DNA of 16,527 nt from an uncultured archaeon (lineage in GTDB: Archaea > Asgardarchaeota > Thorarchaeia > Thorarchaeales > Thorarchaeaceae), in the NCBI GenBank assembly GCA_964473825.1, contig CAYYQL010000049.1:1-16527 (forward strand). The letters run 5' to 3'. This document shows, piece by piece, positions 2,145-11,107 of the stretch. How positions within the stretch are numbered: the first letter of the stretch is position 1; each line of letters begins with the position of its first letter. The notes under the pieces are model-generated. The model made no database searches, was not told the DNA's origin, and was given only the letters and a program-made list of their open reading frames with translations. The position numbers and the translations under genes are program-made.

Positions 2145-4661
2145 TCAGTAGTTGGTTAGCTGCAAAAGCTTAGCGGGCAGCTCCTCAATGGACTCAATTG
2201 GTAAGTAGGAACCGTGACAGGCCTTTGCAAGACTCTCCGACGCTTGAAGACTGAACGTGCCCTTGGGTACAAGAATGATCACTCTAATGTCCTGTTGTTT
2301 CATCTGAGCAGCAAGCTTCTCGCATGATACTTGATCAGACAGGTACATGTCAGTGTTGAATATGAACACCTTCTCTTTTGCTCGACTCCTATCTAGGTTA
2401 TCGAGGGCCAATCGCATTGCTTGCATTCCTCCTGTTCCCCCGGATGCTCGCACATCAAGCAGGTCAGAGGCCACCTCATCCACTGATACGGTCTTGTCAG
2501 TTATCTCCTTGACAATATGTGTTTCTGAGTCAAAGAGCACAACCCCAAAGTCATCTTGCTGCACACCATAGAGCCCAGCCATTACCGATATGGCCAGCAT
2601 GCCGAGCTTGTTCGGGTCATCCATACTGCCCGACTTGTCCAATGCCCAAAAGAAAGCTCGTTGCCCTTGATATGTTTCCGTTATCAAGAAGTCCTCAGGA
2701 TCGACTGCATCGAAGGTGGTTCTCCCTAATGACAGCAGCGAGTCAATAGTCTCTTCTAAGTCGATCAGATCAATATCATCACCGATTCTGAACGGACGAA
2801 CTGTTGTTGATTGCTGGATTCCACCCAGCATAGATGACCCCATCGTCTGTCGTGCGAAGCGCATGCCGAGGTCGATAAGGAGTCCCTTTGCAATCAGCTT
2901 GAGCCGCTGCATCAGCTCTGGTGGTAGGGCATCTCGATAGCTATACCAGATTTTCACGATGTTTGTTGCAGGACCCCCAAGCAGGCCGCCGAGGACCATC
3001 TCGGTTCTATCCTTGTCCGTGCCATGGGACTGCTGACCGTATCGCCCAGCGCCTCGAACCATGTTCTGGCCTAATGCTGCGCCAAAATCAACATGGGCGA
3101 TTGCTCCCATTGCAGATTGATTAGCGCTCTCCTGTGCTGTGTCTGCAAGCTCGCGTAGCTGATTTTGAGTCAGAACGGCCGATGATATGAGACTGTGTAG
3201 CCGTTCGAAGTCTGACACACCTGACTTGATCAGTGTCTTGATTACTTGGAAACTGGGATTCACTAACTCGAGGATCTCCTCCTCTGTCATTCCCAGTCTA
3301 GTTCCTGCTTCTTCTATAGCCTGCCTTGACGGAACAGAACCTATCCGTGAGGCCTGTCTTACAGTCTTCCTGAGATGTGTCTTGGTCTGGGTAGAACGCA
3401 CTGCTTCATCGGTCAGGCTCTGCATTGCCTCCTGCCAGTGCTCGCCCTGTCTGGATTTGCCCAGCTTGTCCTGCAGGTTACTCATCTGTGAGAGGCTATT
3501 CATGAGGAAGTCTGTGTGTGTAGAACGTGACTTGGCCTGATGCAGAAGGTCATCTGTCATCTTGTCTACGAGGTCTCTCCAGTCCTGGTTGTCCATTGCG
3601 TGGTCAGCCAGCTGTGAGTGGTCTACCTTGTCCCTCGCAGAACCATCATAGTTCTCGTTGAAGGCCTTCATGACCTGGGCGGAGTGGTCCTTACCCGTAT
3701 GCCGCTTGATGCTATCGGCTAGGTCCATTGCCTGGTCAAGTGTGTAGTCATTCGCCGCCTTGTCAACCAGCTCCTCGACATTCTCCGTGTCACGGCCCAA
3801 TTCAGAGGAATACGAAGCCGCCTGATGCAGGTTTTCGATGTTATCCTGGAGTGTCCTATCCATAGAGGAAAGGGTCTTCTCATCCGGTACCTCCATTTCC
3901 TCCATCATCTTCAGTGACTTGGCAGCTGTGGCTGGATCCCGACGAGCAAGGTCTGAGAAGGCCTCCTCGACATCATCGTCTCCCCGTAAGGCTTTTGCCG
4001 CCACCCTTTCTGCGGAACTCGGCGATTGGGCCACGTCGTCCAGGCTATCAAGTACCTGACTGTTCTGGATGTCCTGACTTCTCAGATTACCCATCCGGTC
4101 AAGAAGCTCGGAGGACGCAGTCGATTTGAGCTGCTCATCACTGGAGATTCCGCGCAGGACTATATCGCCGTCTGTTAGGTAGTCCCGCGACGCATCGTAA
4201 AGATCAGATTGGCCTCGCTGCTTGAGTTCCTGAAGATACTGATACCCCGCCTCAACCTTGTCCTTCTTGATAATCTTGCGGAGCGACTGTTCTCTCTTGA
4301 TCTGAGCGATGATTTCACCGAGTCTGTCCTGTTGAATAGCTTGTTGTGCCGCATCAACTGCGACTTGCTCCTCTTCCTTCTCCTGTTCATTCTTCCTTCC
4401 GAAAACGATGTCCTCGGCGATGATCCTTGCAATTTTCTGATCGAGTGGGTAGGTGGTAAAGACTGCTGCATCAATAAAATCATCCAGAGTGAATTCTCCG
4501 TTCCTGAAATACCTTGCAGAGAGCAGCTGCGGAATTGCCTGGGTCTGCCTCATGCTTGGCTTCTTGCGTACCTCCTCATGGTTTCGCATCCGAGCAACAA
4601 ACTCGAAGGCAAAATCCAAGACGCTGCTGGGAAACGGCTCAATGGAGGACTTCGTGGTCAC
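2145..4661 (-). CDS. Large VWA-domain protein (CoxE/ViaA-like MoxR partner) with a long helical middle region
   Basis: C-terminal VWA with MIDAS residues LDKSGSM, ASGGT and NTD, preceded by a CoxE-like RPFRIGDD-IDLEETID segment. Starts 10 nt downstream of the MoxR ATPase. Confidence 0.88.
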   Translation of the reverse strand: MTTKSSIEPFPSSVLDFAFEFVARMRNHEEVRKKPSMRQTQAIPQLLSARYFRNGEFTLDDFIDAAVFTTYPLDQKIARIIAEDIVFGRKNEQEKEEEQVAVDAAQQAIQQDRLGEIIAQIKREQSLRKIIKKDKVEAGYQYLQELKQRGQSDLYDASRDYLTDGDIVLRGISSDEQLKSTASSELLDRMGNLRSQDIQNSQVLDSLDDVAQSPSSAERVAAKALRGDDDVEEAFSDLARRDPATAAKSLKMMEEMEVPDEKTLSSMDRTLQDNIENLHQAASYSSELGRDTENVEELVDKAANDYTLDQAMDLADSIKRHTGKDHSAQVMKAFNENYDGSARDKVDHSQLADHAMDNQDWRDLVDKMTDDLLHQAKSRSTHTDFLMNSLSQMSNLQDKLGKSRQGEHWQEAMQSLTDEAVRSTQTKTHLRKTVRQASRIGSVPSRQAIEEAGTRLGMTEEEILELVNPSFQVIKTLIKSGVSDFERLHSLISSAVLTQNQLRELADTAQESANQSAMGAIAHVDFGAALGQNMVRGAGRYGQQSHGTDKDRTEMVLGGLLGGPATNIVKIWYSYRDALPPELMQRLKLIAKGLLIDLGMRFARQTMGSSMLGGIQQSTTVRPFRIGDDIDLIDLEETIDSLLSLGRTTFDAVDPEDFLITETYQGQRAFFWALDKSGSMDDPNKLGMLAISVMAGLYGVQQDDFGVVLFDSETHIVKEITDKTVSVDEVASDLLDVRASGGTGGMQAMRLALDNLDRSRAKEKVFIFNTDMYLSDQVSCEKLAAQMKQQDIRVIILVPKGTFSLQASESLAKACHGSYLPIESIEELPAKLLQLTNY

Positions 4662-4671
4662 GGAGCAACCC

Positions 4672-5577
4672 TCAATCGCTCAGGCTTCTTCGAACAAGGG
4701 AGTTGACAGCCGGCTCAGGGTCAATTCCAGGCCGGAAGCGTAGTGCACCTGTGAGGACGTAGGTCGCTGCCTTGGAGAGGATCCCGTAATCAACCTCCTT
4801 CTTGTTCTCTCGCTTGGCCATCTGTGACGCAAGCCGAGAGATAGAGATTCCTGCCCGGATGGATGCAGGCGCTTCAATATCGGTGCTATTCCGTGTGGCA
4901 TTCACCAGCCCATAGACATTCTCAAGCAGATAGTCGCTGAGCTTGTACTCAGGACAATTCATCTTGACTATTTCGAGCTCTGTCTCCTTTCGGGGATATC
5001 CAATCCTGATCCAGACACGTATCCTGTCTCGTAATGCTTCGCTGAGTCGATGTGCACCTGCCATTTCCTCGGGGTTCATAGTTAGTACGGGGAAAAAGTC
5101 CTCGTGAGCGGTGATGCGCCCGAGTCGCTGAACATTCACTGATCTCTCCTCAAATGGCTCAAGGAGGCTGTTCTGGACGTACTCCGGCAGTCTATTACCC
5201 TCGTTCAAGCCGAAGACCCCACCGAAGACCATCGTCTTGAGCAGTGGGCCAGGGTCGAAACTATCCAGTGTGAATCCCTTGCTCAAGACAAGAGCAGGAT
5301 TGAATGACCCGATGAGATGAGACGGTCTCACTCCCTCGTCTCCCGTAATCCAACTGAAGTCCCTTCCGCTCCTCTCAGCATACGCTCGCAAAAGCAGAGT
5401 CTTACCCGTTCCCGGAGGGCCAATGATTCCCGGAATGAGACTGGCGTTCTCGCAGTCTTCGAGGATATCGTAAGCATCTTTGTATTGCTCCTTGATTACG
5501 ATCTTGACTCTCTGCTTCTTGGTTTCTGACAGGCGTTCATCAAAAGCATCTGCAAATTCAACTAAGCTTTCCTTCAT
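4672..5577 (-). CDS. MoxR-family AAA+ ATPase
   Basis: Walker A GPPGTGKT, Walker B variant FGLNEGNR, QNSLLEPFEE, sensor 1 TMNP, Arg finger LSEALRDR, sensor 2 SIRA. Confidence 0.92.
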   Translation of the reverse strand: MKESLVEFADAFDERLSETKKQRVKIVIKEQYKDAYDILEDCENASLIPGIIGPPGTGKTLLLRAYAERSGRDFSWITGDEGVRPSHLIGSFNPALVLSKGFTLDSFDPGPLLKTMVFGGVFGLNEGNRLPEYVQNSLLEPFEERSVNVQRLGRITAHEDFFPVLTMNPEEMAGAHRLSEALRDRIRVWIRIGYPRKETELEIVKMNCPEYKLSDYLLENVYGLVNATRNSTDIEAPASIRAGISISRLASQMAKRENKKEVDYGILSKAATYVLTGALRFRPGIDPEPAVNSLVRRSLSD

Positions 5578-6746: not shown

Positions 6747-6914
6747 TCACCAATCAAGGAAGACTGCAAGCAATGCAAGAAGGATTATGAGTGCGATAGC
6801 GGCTCCTATGAGTTGACACCAGCACTCGCAACACTTGTTGCAGCAGCCCTCGTCTTTCTCTGTTTCTTGTTTAGTTGGCCCCGAATACTCATCTGGCAGT
6901 GGAACTTCAACCAT
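6747..6914 (-). CDS. 55-aa cysteine-rich, C-terminally membrane-anchored microprotein
   Basis: Below the ORF-track cutoff. Manual translation: MVEVPLPDEYSGPTKQETEKDEGCCNKCCECWCQLIGAAIALIILLALLAVFLDW*. Polar N-terminus, Cys cluster and a ~19-aa hydrophobic helix. Fills an otherwise empty gap; an alternative in-frame GTG lies at 6923. Confidence 0.7.
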   Translation of the reverse strand: MVEVPLPDEYSGPTKQETEKDEGCCNKCCECWCQLIGAAIALIILLALLAVFLDW

Positions 6915-7037
6915 TTCATCCACTCAACTTAGTTTAGTGCAGTTCTTCTCGCCTGCAACAAACGCTCACAAGCTCAACAGTCTTATGAGCATATCGGGCA
7001 TATCTGTCCGCTCTCTCTCCAAAAAGAAGAAAAGCCT

Positions 7038-8501
7038 TTGTTCAGTCTACTAGACATTCGCGAGAGATTGGACAGGCCAGGATTGAGGACGTTGAATGAA
7101 GAGAATGTCACCACCATTTTCGACCGCCCGCGAGGACTTCGTTTTATCGGACTAACACAGATGCTCTTTGGGTTTCTTGGATTACTTGGAAGTATTGGGC
7201 TCATCTATGCATGGTATGTTGGTGTACTTGACCTTGTGGGGGTGGGACCGTTCTATGCCCTGGCCATGATTCTTGGGGTTGCTATACCCTGTCTTGTAAT
7301 AGGCAACTATGTCGACGATCTTCGTAGGAAGGCCGTCGGTGCTCAGATAGTCTATAGCCTGCTTGCGGTACTGCTCAGCATCTACTTCTTGATGTGGAGA
7401 GGCCTAAACTATCGATGGAGCGTTCCTTTCTTTGAGATGGCATACGTGGTGTACATCGGGAACTTGGCCGCTGCTATCCTCATTGTGGAAATGGCTTTTG
7501 CCCTTTACCTTATCCTCAACTGGGAACAAGTTGTACCACCGGAAGGGGCAGTGGTGGTGCGCGATAGGGCGCGAGCACGTGAACACAAGAAACGTCTGAT
7601 GCCCACTCCCATCAGCCCTGGTCTCATATCTCGGGATGGTTTCACTGAGGTACCTCCTGAAGAGAGGGAGAGGATTCTTGAGATTCGACGAATGACTACT
7701 GACGAGGGAATGGCAATCCTATGCTCAAACTGTGGGGGAGCAACCCCATTGACTGAAGCCAGGAAGGATAACACAGTGGAATGTGCATATTGTGGTGTGA
7801 GGCTCGGTCTGAGCAGTGTGTTCGTTCCGTGTGAGAATCATCCGAACTACCTTGCTGCAACAAAATGCTCTGTCTGTGGTGATTACTACTGTCGCAAATG
7901 CCTAACAGCACAAGAACCACCCGTGGACGAGAGATGGGAAGGATCAACAATATTCCTCTGCAAGAAGTGCTTTGAGGGAAGATATCGGCCGGCCGTGACA
8001 ACAACATCTTTAGTCATTCCGATTGATTCACTCTTTCAAAAGGCTGGTGGACGGTTTTCTCGGCTTGGAAAAATCTACAGGCGCTTTCTGGGTATGTATG
8101 GACGGTCCATGAGATGGGTAGTTCATCTCGCTGCACGGATGGCTGCAGCGATTCCTAAGTCTAGCGGTGGTGGCCGTGGGGGCGATGATGCAGCAGCAGC
8201 ACTGCTGGTGTTTGTTCTCATTGTTATCGCCATTCCTGTGGCAATTGGGGCCGTTCTCCTCGTTGCCGGCATCGTGATAATCCCGATACTCTTCTATGCA
8301 GGGCTCGTTGGTGTCACAATTGAGGCTGTACGAATAATAAGACGTACTGATTTCGTGTCGGTAGAAGAAGGGAGGGACATTGGTATAAGAAGGCACGAGA
8401 AGCCTGAGCAGAAGGAATCACCAATGAGAGGCGTTTCGAGAGAGTGGCAGCAACCCACCGCTGAAACAGTACCATCTGAAACTCGGCATAGGAGGGGCTA
8501 G
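7038..8501 (+). CDS. Multi-pass membrane protein with a central Zn-ribbon + B-box-like zinc finger and a C-terminal hydrophobic hairpin
   Basis: About 4 N-terminal TM segments, then CSNC..CAYC, CENHP..CSVC..CRKC..CKKC, then a Gly-rich linker and a ~45-aa hydrophobic stretch. Start uncertain (TTG at 7038, 7068 or 7092). Confidence 0.8.
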   Translation: MFSLLDIRERLDRPGLRTLNEENVTTIFDRPRGLRFIGLTQMLFGFLGLLGSIGLIYAWYVGVLDLVGVGPFYALAMILGVAIPCLVIGNYVDDLRRKAVGAQIVYSLLAVLLSIYFLMWRGLNYRWSVPFFEMAYVVYIGNLAAAILIVEMAFALYLILNWEQVVPPEGAVVVRDRARAREHKKRLMPTPISPGLISRDGFTEVPPEERERILEIRRMTTDEGMAILCSNCGGATPLTEARKDNTVECAYCGVRLGLSSVFVPCENHPNYLAATKCSVCGDYYCRKCLTAQEPPVDERWEGSTIFLCKKCFEGRYRPAVTTTSLVIPIDSLFQKAGGRFSRLGKIYRRFLGMYGRSMRWVVHLAARMAAAIPKSSGGGRGGDDAAAALLVFVLIVIAIPVAIGAVLLVAGIVIIPILFYAGLVGVTIEAVRIIRRTDFVSVEEGRDIGIRRHEKPEQKESPMRGVSREWQQPTAETVPSETRHRRG

Positions 8502-8502
8502 A

Positions 8503-9330
8503 ATGGAAACAATGCGAGAAACAATTCTGTGTCCTGTTTGTGGCGGCAGAATCGCTTTTGTCTACCGAGATGAAGTTAATCGATGTGAGTATTGCGGGAG
8601 TCCTGTCCTCGGCGCGGATCAAGACAGGAACTGTGAAAACCATCCCGAGCAGTTGGCAAAGGGAGTATGCCATGTCTGTGACAAACTCATTTGTGAAGGA
8701 TGCATGGAGCGGCGAGTGGGCGACTATGGAGGCAAGCTTCTGACTATTGTGAACTGTACCAGCCCTGCCTGTGTCCTACAAAGTGAGTGGGCACGACCCC
8801 ACAACGAAGAACTTGAGCGGTTGATAGACTTCGAATGGGCCGACAGAATTGACAATCTCATCTTCAGAATGACCGGTCTTGGAGCTGTGCTGATGATGGT
8901 CTTTGAGCTAGTCTTCGTGTTGGCCCTGCTCTACATTCAGTATCTGACACCTTTCGGCTGGAGTGACCTGAACATGCCATACATCATCTTGCGGGGAGAC
9001 ATTGTGATAGTCCTGAGTATACTCGGCAATCTCCTCTCTGCGATGATATTACAGACCGCCCTGCAGGTCTATGCACATGAGAGACAGCTCACCTCTGGGA
9101 TTGTGCTTCTCTTCCTGATAATCGTCCAGGCCGCGTTTCTCTTGTTTCGAGGGCTCTATTTCGGTCTAAGATCACATCCGAACCCACTGCTCGTACCCAT
9201 GCTGCTTGCTGGCTTTCTGTTTGCGACAATTCTTGTATTCGTTGGCTCCCTTATGGCTATCCGTGTTGGTCTCAAGAAGAGATCTCAAGTCAAAGACGCA
9301 TATGCCAGACTTGGTCTCAGGGAACGATAA
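8503..9330 (+). CDS. Membrane protein with an N-terminal Zn-ribbon + B-box-like zinc finger and ~4 C-terminal TM helices
   Basis: CPVC..CEYC, CENHP..CHVC..CEGC..CTSPAC, then four hydrophobic segments. ATG is 1 nt after the upstream TAG, with an AGGAGG SD. Confidence 0.82.
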   Translation: METMRETILCPVCGGRIAFVYRDEVNRCEYCGSPVLGADQDRNCENHPEQLAKGVCHVCDKLICEGCMERRVGDYGGKLLTIVNCTSPACVLQSEWARPHNEELERLIDFEWADRIDNLIFRMTGLGAVLMMVFELVFVLALLYIQYLTPFGWSDLNMPYIILRGDIVIVLSILGNLLSAMILQTALQVYAHERQLTSGIVLLFLIIVQAAFLLFRGLYFGLRSHPNPLLVPMLLAGFLFATILVFVGSLMAIRVGLKKRSQVKDAYARLGLRER

Positions 9331-9337
9331 TTCTCTC

Positions 9338-11107
9338 CTAAGCCGACGGCACATCGAAGAGATCGATCAATCTGAATCGGTTTACATCCACGAGCCCCAA
9401 GTCAGTGATTTTGAGATGCGGAATAACAGGCAGACTCAAGAAAGCCATTGACATGAAAGGCTCCTCTAATTCTGCGCCTAGTTCGTCAGCTGCATCACGA
9501 AGCTTCTTCAGTTTCTCGCTCACTTCTTCTATCGATTTGTCTGACATTAGACCTGCAATCGGGAGAGGCAGGGCCTCAAGCACTTCTCCATCGCGAATGA
9601 GAGCAATGCCTCCTTGCATACGAGTGATATGGACAGCAGCCTCCATCATGTCCGTGTCATTTGTTCCTACAGTAACTATGTTATGACTGTCGTGTGCAAT
9701 TGATGACGCCATCGCCCCGGTCTTCAATCCCGTCCCCTTCACAAAACCGAAAGCACGTGGAGGAGTCGCATTGTGCCGCTCTATGACCGCAACCTTAGCT
9801 AGGTCTCTATCGATGTCTGGAACTGCCAAAGCACCGTCCATATGGGTGTCTTCGACTAGGTGTTCTGTTACAATCTGATTGGGAATCATTCCGATGACAT
9901 TCATCTGGTCACCCTTGGCCTTTATTTGGAAATCTTCAGGTTCGAGCCAATGGATGTTTACTGACCTTCTGAGGCGGGGTTGTTCCTGAGCACCAAATTC
10001 CTGGACCATCTTTCCGTCCTTGGCAACGAGAACTCCTTGTTTGAAGACCATCTCGACATTTACATTTTCTAAAGAGTCAAGGACTGAGATGTCTGCATGA
10101 TACCCGGGAGCAACGGCTCCAACATATTGCAGGCCGTAGTGACGGGCTGTTGAGAGCGTGGCCACTCTGATTGCCAGCATCGGGTCAAGTCCAGACTGAA
10201 CTGCATTCCTCACCATGCTATCAATATGCCCCTTCTCAAGAAGATCTAATGTGTTTCTGTCATCTGTAACGAAACTTACGAAGTCTGCCGTTTCCGGCCG
10301 AATAATGCCAATGAGATCTTGAAGGTTCTTTGCAGTTGAGCCTTCTCTGATGTGGATGTGCATACCTCTCGCGAGTTTTCGCTCAGCTTCTTCGAGCTCA
10401 GTACATTCGTGTTCGCTTGTTATTCGAGCTGCGCAATATGCATTCAAGTCATGCCCTGCAATACCTGGAGCATGACCGTCAATCCTCTTGCCCATCTGTA
10501 GAGCTACACGTATCTTTTCGAGGATTTCAGGTTCTCGAAACACGACACCTTGGTAGTTCATAGCCTCGGCTAGTCCAAGCACATACTGCTCTGTCATTAG
10601 TGGCTGAATATCCAGAAAATCAAGTGCAACTCCATTTGTCTCCAAATCTGTCGACGGAACGCAAGATGGCAGCATGACATAAAAGTCGAGAGGGCCACCT
10701 CTCATGCTCTTGCTCATGTACATTATTCCCTCCATGCCGAGAACATTGGCTATCTCATGGGGGTCTGCGATTACAGCGCCTGTCCCATGAGGCACTACAG
10801 CCCGTGCATACTGTATTGGCATCACCATTGACGACTCAACGTGAACATGCCCATCGATGAATGAAGGAACCACATACTTTCCCTTGACATCAATGATATT
10901 GCTCCCTACGTACTCACCAATCCCAGCTATGTAGTTTCCATGAATTGCCACATCCCCCTCTTCTATCTCGCCCGTGAAAACATTGACCACGGATGCGTTC
11001 CTTAAGACCAAGTCTGCACGTGTTCTTGCGGATGCAACATCGATCATCTCATCAAGGGGATACTCTGCAGGTCGTGACAGAAACAAAGCATGGTTCTCCT
11101 TACTCAT
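9338..11107 (-). CDS. ade: Adenine deaminase (AdeC, amidohydrolase superfamily)
   Basis: FIDGHVHVESS, DPHEIANVLG, PSCVP, DGHAP, EHEC, IREGS, VTDD, IERH, SIAHDSHN, LPLPIAGLMS, LSLPVIPHLKITDLGLVDV; typical length. Confidence 0.95.
   Translation of the reverse strand: MSKENHALFLSRPAEYPLDEMIDVASARTRADLVLRNASVVNVFTGEIEEGDVAIHGNYIAGIGEYVGSNIIDVKGKYVVPSFIDGHVHVESSMVMPIQYARAVVPHGTGAVIADPHEIANVLGMEGIMYMSKSMRGGPLDFYVMLPSCVPSTDLETNGVALDFLDIQPLMTEQYVLGLAEAMNYQGVVFREPEILEKIRVALQMGKRIDGHAPGIAGHDLNAYCAARITSEHECTELEEAERKLARGMHIHIREGSTAKNLQDLIGIIRPETADFVSFVTDDRNTLDLLEKGHIDSMVRNAVQSGLDPMLAIRVATLSTARHYGLQYVGAVAPGYHADISVLDSLENVNVEMVFKQGVLVAKDGKMVQEFGAQEQPRLRRSVNIHWLEPEDFQIKAKGDQMNVIGMIPNQIVTEHLVEDTHMDGALAVPDIDRDLAKVAVIERHNATPPRAFGFVKGTGLKTGAMASSIAHDSHNIVTVGTNDTDMMEAAVHITRMQGGIALIRDGEVLEALPLPIAGLMSDKSIEEVSEKLKKLRDAADELGAELEEPFMSMAFLSLPVIPHLKITDLGLVDVNRFRLIDLFDVPSA

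Follow-up and report, generated by a model that had tools for sequence, protein, structure and literature searches.

The window analysed here is a stretch of 16,527 nucleotides (contig CAYYQL010000049.1 of assembly GCA_964473825.1) from an uncultured member of the Thorarchaeaceae, order Thorarchaeales; it is archaeal and includes genes for an F420-0:gamma-glutamyl ligase, an adenine deaminase, a MoxR-type ATPase and a leucine-rich repeat protein. Of all known prokaryotes, the Asgard archaea, the phylum to which it belongs, stand nearest to the eukaryotes, and hardly any of the membrane proteins peculiar to their lineages have been characterised. Within the window lie two adjacent genes, here called A and B, that encode predicted membrane proteins which each carry a cysteine-rich zinc module. 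An earlier note on this DNA, made from its letters alone, had read them as a coupled pair that shares a zinc ribbon and a B-box-like finger in mirror-image architecture, and had proposed that the two proteins form a heteromeric membrane complex. The parts of the pair are as follows; residue numbers in A count from position 7038.

7092–8501, + strand: gene A, about 469 amino acids (487 if the start is TTG 7038)
7131–7517, + strand: predicted N-terminal bundle of four transmembrane helices (4TM bundle) of A, residues 32–160, with a beta-hairpin in the outer TM3–TM4 loop and IGNYVDDLRR at the cytoplasmic end of TM2
7722–7970, + strand: predicted A zinc module, residues 229–311, made of a zinc ribbon C229–C252 (7722–7793) and a B-box-like cross-brace finger C265–C311 (7830–7970)
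7971–8147, + strand: A linker (FEGRYRPAVTTTSLVIPIDxLF) and amphipathic helix (residues 329–370)
8187–8345, + strand: A hydrophobic segment, residues 384–436, with a Kyte-Doolittle peak of 3.2
8490–8495, + strand: AGGAGG, Shine-Dalgarno-like, within the 3' end of A and 7 nt ahead of the B ATG
8503–9330, + strand: gene B, 275 amino acids, with a zinc ribbon and B-box-like module, a 4TM bundle and a basic C-terminal tail
8530–8772, + strand: predicted B zinc module, residues 10–90, made of a zinc ribbon C10–C31 (8530–8595) and a B-box-like finger C44–C90 (8632–8772)
8833–9276, + strand: predicted B 4TM bundle, residues 111–258

The open frame of A spans 7038–8501 and closes with a TAG at 8499–8501, and the ATG of B stands at 8503, leaving the gap of 1 nt between the genes that had been reported before; in other genomes the A stop and the B start overlap or are 1–6 nt apart. 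A Shine-Dalgarno site within the upstream gene together with near-abutting genes is the usual layout for translational coupling, and the AGGAGG 7 nt before the B ATG thus suggests that A and B are translationally coupled. The database gene call for A begins at ATG 7161 (Met42) and gives 446 amino acids; since the conserved block TIFDRPxGLRFIG falls upstream of that ATG, and since the closest A homologue (79% identity) starts MNEDNVTTIFDRP, which corresponds to TTG 7092, the true start of A is probably TTG 7092 and not ATG 7161. From that end the parts of A run in the order 4TM bundle, zinc ribbon and B-box-like module, conserved linker, amphipathic helix, glycine-rich spacer, 46-residue putative hydrophobic hairpin and basic tail. 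The ratio of nonsynonymous to synonymous substitution rates (dN/dS), measured against a congener, is 0.12 for A and 0.08 for B; both are real genes under purifying selection.

The zinc module is about 90 residues long and has 12 metal ligands in each protein (C229, C232, C249, C252, C265, H268, C277, C280, C285, C288, C308 and C311 in A; C10, C13, C28, C31, C44, H47, C56, C59, C64, C67, C85 and C90 in B). The ribbon follows the pattern CxxC-x14/16-CxxC, and the eight ligands of the finger then follow C-x2-H-x8-C-x2-C-x4-C-x2-C-x17/19-C-x2/4-C. In a 35-sequence alignment of each family the ligands are invariant or nearly so, position 67 of B being Asp in a few members, and all 12 are invariant also in a 23-sequence alignment with more distant carriers (A, B and the small paralogues described below). 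BLASTP aligns A residues 226–289 with B residues 7–68 at 36% identity over 64 residues (E 1e-9), and the profiles of the two module families match with an hhalign probability of 98.3% (E 2e-14, 65 columns). By these comparisons the A and B modules are homologous, far beyond chance, and the paralogy that the earlier note had read from the paired cysteine motifs stands, with the 12 ligands in each.

What kind of finger this is can be judged from each half of the module. The ribbon half of the module profile matches RNA polymerase subunit P (4qiw, E 6.9e-4), and it has the two CxxC knuckles of a C4 zinc ribbon of the RpoP/Rpo12 kind, with strands at residues 6–9, 16–19 and 26–28 in the structural model of B. 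The second half places eight Cys/His ligands at B-box spacing, with an atypical last pair that is distal and Cys rather than His. Searched against the Protein Data Bank (PDB), the module profile finds MID1 B-box1 (2ffw, E 6.6e-5), MID1 (2jun, E 0.0012) and the B-box stretch of TRIM2 (8ams, 17.6 bits), and it also weakly matches the RING domains of RNF4 and TRIM proteins. The Pfam model zf-B_box (PF00643) matches 32 of the 35 B-family members at E <= 0.01 (best E 3.3e-5) and has a precomputed match on a few homologues of B; members of the A family give weak IBR, FYVE and ANCHR-B-box matches. As far as profiles and ligand spacing can tell, the module is a zinc ribbon followed by a B-box-type cross-brace finger, with three predicted zinc sites, as had been supposed. 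A FYVE finger (PF01363) was considered for A and set aside: of the basic motifs by which FYVE fingers bind PI3P (WxxD, RR/KHHCR and RVC), A lacks RRHH and WxxD, having HFCRxC and FLCxKC, and only 7 of the 35 A members match, at E 0.003 or weaker.

The membrane parts of the two proteins are of another sort. An AlphaFold2 model of B built on the family alignment reaches a mean per-residue confidence (pLDDT) of 89.7, with a beta-rich zinc region at residues 6–85 and helices at 111–148, 166–191, 195–219 and 230–269; the AlphaFold2 model of A has a mean pLDDT of 71.6, with confident helices at 32–61, 70–92, 97–121 and 140–160. The mirror-image architecture claimed earlier holds for the position of the zinc module but not for the 4TM bundles, between which there is no detectable homology (hhalign probability 3%), and the putative A hairpin shows no detectable relationship to either bundle (hhalign probabilities 0.2% and 0.4%). 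The membrane domains are thus not detectably related, and only the zinc module is common to A and B.

Family averages of lysine plus arginine are 0.1–0.5 in loops 1 and 3 of each bundle and 6.4–6.5 on the zinc-module side and in the tails. Applied to these counts, the positive-inside rule predicts that the zinc module and the tail of each protein face the cytoplasm, which agrees with the topology assumed in the earlier note. The A hydrophobic segment has 46 uncharged residues, conserved P400, P416 and G422, and basic flanks on both sides, and from the same rule we infer a predicted two-pass hairpin with both ends in the cytoplasm, where AlphaFold2 draws residues 384–436 as one helix of 53 residues. 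Conservation in A is highest in the linker FEGRYRPAVTTTSLVIPID directly after the finger, with invariant columns F312–F340; residues 315–329 have pLDDT < 50 in the A model, and the linker may be a docking segment. Inside the helices of B, polar residues E135, N176, Q184, Q188 and E209 are invariant, TM2 carries a polar stripe (N176-A180-Q184-Q188-H192), and there is a conserved cytoplasmic HERQ loop. The invariant polar residues of A are Q103, Y106, S107 and N142, and its motif NYVDDLRR (7305–7328, residues 90–97), invariant or nearly so across the family, gives the strongest hint of a possible ligand or metal site in the A membrane domain.

No family in Pfam, NCBIfam, PADLOC or the PDB accounts for the membrane parts of A or B, and no characterised transporter or enzyme family among them matched either protein, as the earlier note had anticipated. 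Whole-family profiles run against PDB sequences gave nothing useful, and Foldseek found no PDB match to the B model at E < 0.1. Fold searches returned generic four-helix bundles only, and whole-model matches were dominated by helical bundles. By shape and features, the ESM Atlas yielded the proteins' own Thorarchaeota cluster and, at low TM-score, clusters of bacterial membrane proteins with a B-box; two Microcaldota clusters, with scores of 0.77–0.78, serve as leads only. Tetraspanins (CD53, 6wvg; CD9, 6k4j) were rejected as relatives because the hallmark of that family, a second outer loop that is large and bears a CCG motif and conserved disulfide cysteines, is not present.

More than 150 homologues were found for each protein (for A 181, at 51–79% identity; among the best 120 listed for either protein, identity is mostly 51–63%), and those with names are almost always from Thorarchaeota metagenome-assembled genomes. 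When 400 genomes of the phylum were searched with the B profile, it matched 78 of the 85 genomes in the family to which the window belongs, over the full length in most of them, and gave a full-length match in the sole genome of the sister family of the same order; no full-length B was found in the other families sampled among these genomes, with 0 of 135 in the largest of them. When 1.84 billion cluster representatives were searched exhaustively by profile, full-length B turned up in two 50% clusters only; the family is narrow. The pair is confined to one Asgard order, Thorarchaeales, and is not general to Asgard archaea; as a consequence, Asgard-wide co-occurrence statistics cannot separate function from descent.

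Within that order the two genes keep close company. In nearly every B-positive genome an A module lies 0.6–0.8 kb upstream of B on the same strand, and in every one of the 22 loci read, drawn from 17 genera of one family and from its sister family, A lies ahead of B in the same orientation and abuts or overlaps it. A and B are single-copy, their order and spacing are invariant in all of these loci, and both genes are missing jointly from G317 (93% complete) and G336 (97% complete). The linkage of the two genes, on which the earlier note had staked its reading, is found in every related genome read. That note had listed three observations that would count against it, namely unlinked genes, modules on opposite membrane faces, and membership of a characterised family, and none of the three was encountered.

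The 12-ligand cassette also heads a set of small archaeal triple-zinc-finger proteins of 170–255 amino acids (consensus CPxCG...CxYCG...CxNHP...CxxCGxxFCxxCL...C(x2)C), in which two transmembrane helices come directly after the module and whose C-terminus is in many cases a CPHC...CQNC zinc ribbon or a helical tail. Five of them stand in tandem in another Thorarchaeales genome (L022:3765–9260, G334 contig 3; the array and proteins P0248–P0276 share the cassette with A and B), four of the five with the C-terminal CPHC/CQNC ribbon, and several copies occur in a further genome of the same genus (L024:8058–8567, G332 contig 36); the window's own genome has none. The sole full-length module outside Thorarchaeales in the 400 genomes belongs to a 217-amino-acid protein of another Asgard family (L023:2970–3623, G099), with all 12 ligands, two transmembrane helices and a helical tail that ends EEAIRQLAE. 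Like these proteins, which are anchored just after the module, the C-terminal half of A is laid out as module, linker and hairpin. Unlike them, A and B are single-copy, strongly conserved and equipped with extra 4TM bundles; the small paralogues are fast-evolving, patchy and variable in number, and a homology search started from one of them found just 2 proteins. In a maximum-likelihood tree built from the modules, A (100/100) and B (98/100) form separate clades, which are not sisters; each rises on a long stem out of a bush of small paralogues. A separate 344-amino-acid protein (L003:583–1617, G000 contig 1, at about 259.5–260.5 kb) has an N-terminal ribbon CPVCNG...CSFCGS, a soluble middle and two C-terminal transmembrane helices, and a ribbon of this type is also matched by open reading frames (ORFs) of 350–377 amino acids in many genomes of the family.

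Whether A and B touch each other was addressed by structure prediction of the complex. The A–B score was 0.60 (three runs, 0.58–0.63), against 0.00 for the best of 3 unrelated controls; at least 55% of the contacts are common to the runs, and the partner has a pLDDT of at least 75. Of 80 solved complexes, 58 attain the pass mark for this score, as do 2 of 110 mismatched pairs, and passing scores no higher than 0.60 belong to only 7 of the 80 solved complexes and to both of the passing mismatches. The heteromeric complex of the earlier note thus gains weak computational support, and on the strength of the complex prediction and the strict gene coupling together we think it more probable than its opposite that A and B bind each other.

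B-box fingers are best known from eukaryotic TRIM proteins. The first six ligands of the finger in A and B have the arrangement of the TRIM/MID1 B-boxes (2ffw, 2jun, 8ams), C-x2-C/H-x8-11-C-x2-C-x4-C-x2-C, whereas in A and B a distal C-x2(4)-C, which follows a beta-hairpin insert, takes the place of the last pair H...H, and A and B are membrane-embedded and without a RING or coiled coil. Closer in setting are the prokaryotic membrane-associated B-box proteins, which PMC4506424 (citing Burroughs, Iyer and Aravind 2011, Mol Biosyst 7:2261) credits with a predicted role in membrane-protein folding, stability and proteolysis. A and B resemble the proteins described there in carrying a B-box-type finger on a polytopic membrane protein, on the predicted cytoplasmic side, and differ in that their B-box always follows a C4 ribbon and is found in two proteins of a coupled pair. 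No Pfam domain of a rhomboid peptidase, a chaperone or another factor of membrane-protein quality control occurs in A, in B or in their conserved neighbours, and no LiaF-TM or DnaJ/TPR partner was found. In bacterial proteins that join a B-box to a LiaI-LiaF-TM domain (PMC11237479), as in B, an N-terminal B-box is followed by a four-helix membrane domain, but B has no match to the LiaF-TM models and its shape gives a TM-score of 0.31. Bacterial fusions of B-boxes to rhomboids are also among the nearest Atlas shapes, at low TM-score.

Three features flank the pair:

6747–6914, – strand: tail-anchored Cys-cluster microprotein, MVEVPLPDEY...GCCNKCCECWC followed by one transmembrane helix
6915–7091: divergent intergenic region between the microprotein and A, shorter if A starts at 7038
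9338–11107, – strand: adenine deaminase, convergent, ending 7 nt past the B stop

The microprotein had been suggested as a third part of the complex, and this found no support. Its homologues keep the form MTEIPMPxDY...GCCxxCCxC plus a transmembrane helix, and its dN/dS is 0.14 against the congener G384, on few substitutions; neither NCBIfam nor PADLOC has a family for it. At the pair loci, it lies divergently upstream of A in g1, g6, g11, g12 and g13, making up about half of the genera, and it does not lie upstream of A in g2, g4, g5, g8, g9, g10, g14–16 or the sister family (f2); it is a facultative neighbour outside the core pair. Promoters presumably lie within 6915–7091. The adenine deaminase gene is beside the pair in every locus of the family that was read and is not beside it in f2; being convergent, it is not co-transcribed with the pair, and we found no support for it as a functional partner. 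A MoxR–VWA pair, a PALP enzyme and a VIT1-like gene were likewise rejected as partners because their synteny is not kept in G369 or G311. In the window itself, at 2145–5577 on the – strand, an 838-amino-acid protein stands beside the MoxR-type AAA+ gene, and in related loci this protein has a VWA match; MoxR–VWA is a usual type of pair, and it is syntenic with A–B in several genera but not in all. In the sister-family genome G311, two same-strand ORFs of 457 and 138 amino acids without a Pfam match follow A–B (L020:4350–6686), and a gene for a Ras/Roc-like small GTPase adjoins them on the opposite strand.

We tentatively favour, at a little under an even chance, the reading that A and B form a heteromeric membrane complex specific to Thorarchaeales, in which the paralogous three-zinc modules serve as a cytoplasmic docking or oligomerisation platform and the role is non-catalytic. 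The coupled bicistron would yield the two subunits in fixed proportion, and each would put a C4 zinc ribbon and a two-zinc B-box-type finger on the cytoplasmic face of the membrane. There the modules might bind one another or bring in client proteins from the cytoplasm or the membrane, while the unrelated membrane domains (4TM bundle and hairpin of A, 4TM bundle of B) would pack together in the bilayer. The complex could act as a scaffold, a sensor or a membrane-protein homeostasis factor, by analogy with the prokaryotic membrane-associated B-box proteins; the quality-control, signalling and scaffolding roles named in the earlier note would be reached by the same analogy. Cytoplasmic orientation, physical binding of A to B and the docking function are all things that we infer.

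Several points weigh against this reading. Its support is computational throughout. The invariant polar residues within the membrane and the acidic IGNYVDDLRR look more like parts of a binding or catalytic site than of a passive scaffold. The complex score of 0.60 lies in a range that the tool itself rates as more often wrong than right unless the pairing is likely beforehand. As for the finger, the window's B reaches 22.8 bits with PF00643, where the gathering threshold is 24.1, and the window's A has no PF00643 match, only ANCHR-like_BBOX at 17.3 and IBR at 18.3. Finally, no client or partner gene is conserved beside A–B, and only A and B make up the conserved core in the loci read.

The main rival starts from those polar residues. 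A and B could together be a small heteromeric transporter, channel or membrane enzyme of 4 + 4 + 2 helices, in which the B polar stripe, E135 and E209 and the A motif NYVDDLRR, where the membrane meets the cytoplasm, would make up a substrate or ion site, while the zinc modules would have a regulatory or structural part. In its favour are the invariant polar and acidic residues that lie within helices or at their ends, a very high level of conservation (53–63% identity among the homologues listed, dN/dS about 0.1) that suits a housekeeping activity, and the deaminase as a family-wide though convergent neighbour. But Pfam, NCBIfam and the PDB yield no transporter or enzyme family and the fold searches only generic bundles, the deaminase is neither co-transcribed with the pair nor beside it in the sister family, and N-terminal B-box modules are not known from transporters; we regard this alternative as unlikely. 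Somewhat more unlikely still, in our judgement, is that A and B do not bind at all and are independent membrane-anchored zinc-finger adaptors of one superfamily, which common descent and joint regulation would keep side by side, as with the small paralogues in tandem. The module does head many stand-alone small proteins with two transmembrane helices, which form arrays with as many as five genes; in the module tree A and B are not sisters; and the complex prediction is weak. Against independence, the order, spacing and single copy of A–B are invariant, whereas the small paralogues vary and evolve fast; there are signals of coupling; the two genes are absent jointly; and the three unrelated controls scored 0.00.

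Two further alternatives give the modules a definite target. A and B might be a sensor or anchor for membrane stress like LiaI/LiaF, whose zinc modules recruit a protein of the PspA type or of ESCRT-III (endosomal sorting complex required for transport III) to damaged membrane. Bacterial clusters of zf-B_box with LiaI-LiaF-TM are among the nearest Atlas shapes (TM-score 0.31), B-boxes occur in operon or fusion with LiaI-LiaF-TM, PspC and Toastrack (PMC11237479), and the window's genome has two Snf7-family genes. Yet the TM-scores are low, LiaF-TM and LiaI-LiaF-like_TM1 (PF18917, PF22570) do not match B at E up to 10 in a search of the whole genome or in hmmscan, the surroundings of the pair contain no conserved regulator of a stress response, and the Snf7 genes sit on other contigs; we consider this distinctly improbable. 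Very improbable, in turn, is a membrane-bound E3-like ligase, an analogue of MARCH or TRIM proteins for a ubiquitin-like modifier. Its second finger would be a binuclear cross-brace of the RING/B-box class, and the weak module-profile matches to RNF4 and TRIM RING domains and the weak IBR and FYVE matches of A members go in the same direction. The ligands are C-H-C6, however, not the C3HC4 of RING or the C4HC3 of RING-CH, and B-boxes mainly mediate assembly and not catalysis. No match to the E2 family UQ_con (PF00179) was found in the 95.7%-complete genome, a search in which the control genomes were likewise silent. The link to ubiquitin and ESCRT genes that the earlier note wished to see followed up thus found no backing in either quarter.

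The favoured heteromeric complex could also be cast in a more far-reaching form, which we offer as a long shot: an Asgard-specific membrane machine in which the two B-box cassettes make up a heterodimeric cytoplasmic platform that recruits membrane-remodelling or cargo-sorting factors (of ESCRT-III/PspA type, or small-GTPase systems) to a ten-helix membrane core. If this were true, the machine would foreshadow the zinc-finger membrane adaptors of eukaryotes, or be their prokaryotic analogue, and the small paralogues with two transmembrane helices would be variable, exchangeable versions of it. The occurrence of B-boxes on prokaryotic membrane proteins was already known by computation, and the literature that we searched contains no description of the A–B pair; what is new is the fixed cassette of ribbon and B-box, its presence in both members of a coupled pair whose membrane proteins are otherwise unrelated, and the membrane domains of the two. 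The function of prokaryotic B-boxes at membranes has so far been addressed by computation only, and should A and B indeed form a complex, such modules could be studied there in a compact system. As long as they have no assigned function, the practical benefit is modest. Since the pair is near-universal in its family, single-copy and strongly conserved, it is probably important for the cell envelope of Thorarchaeales.

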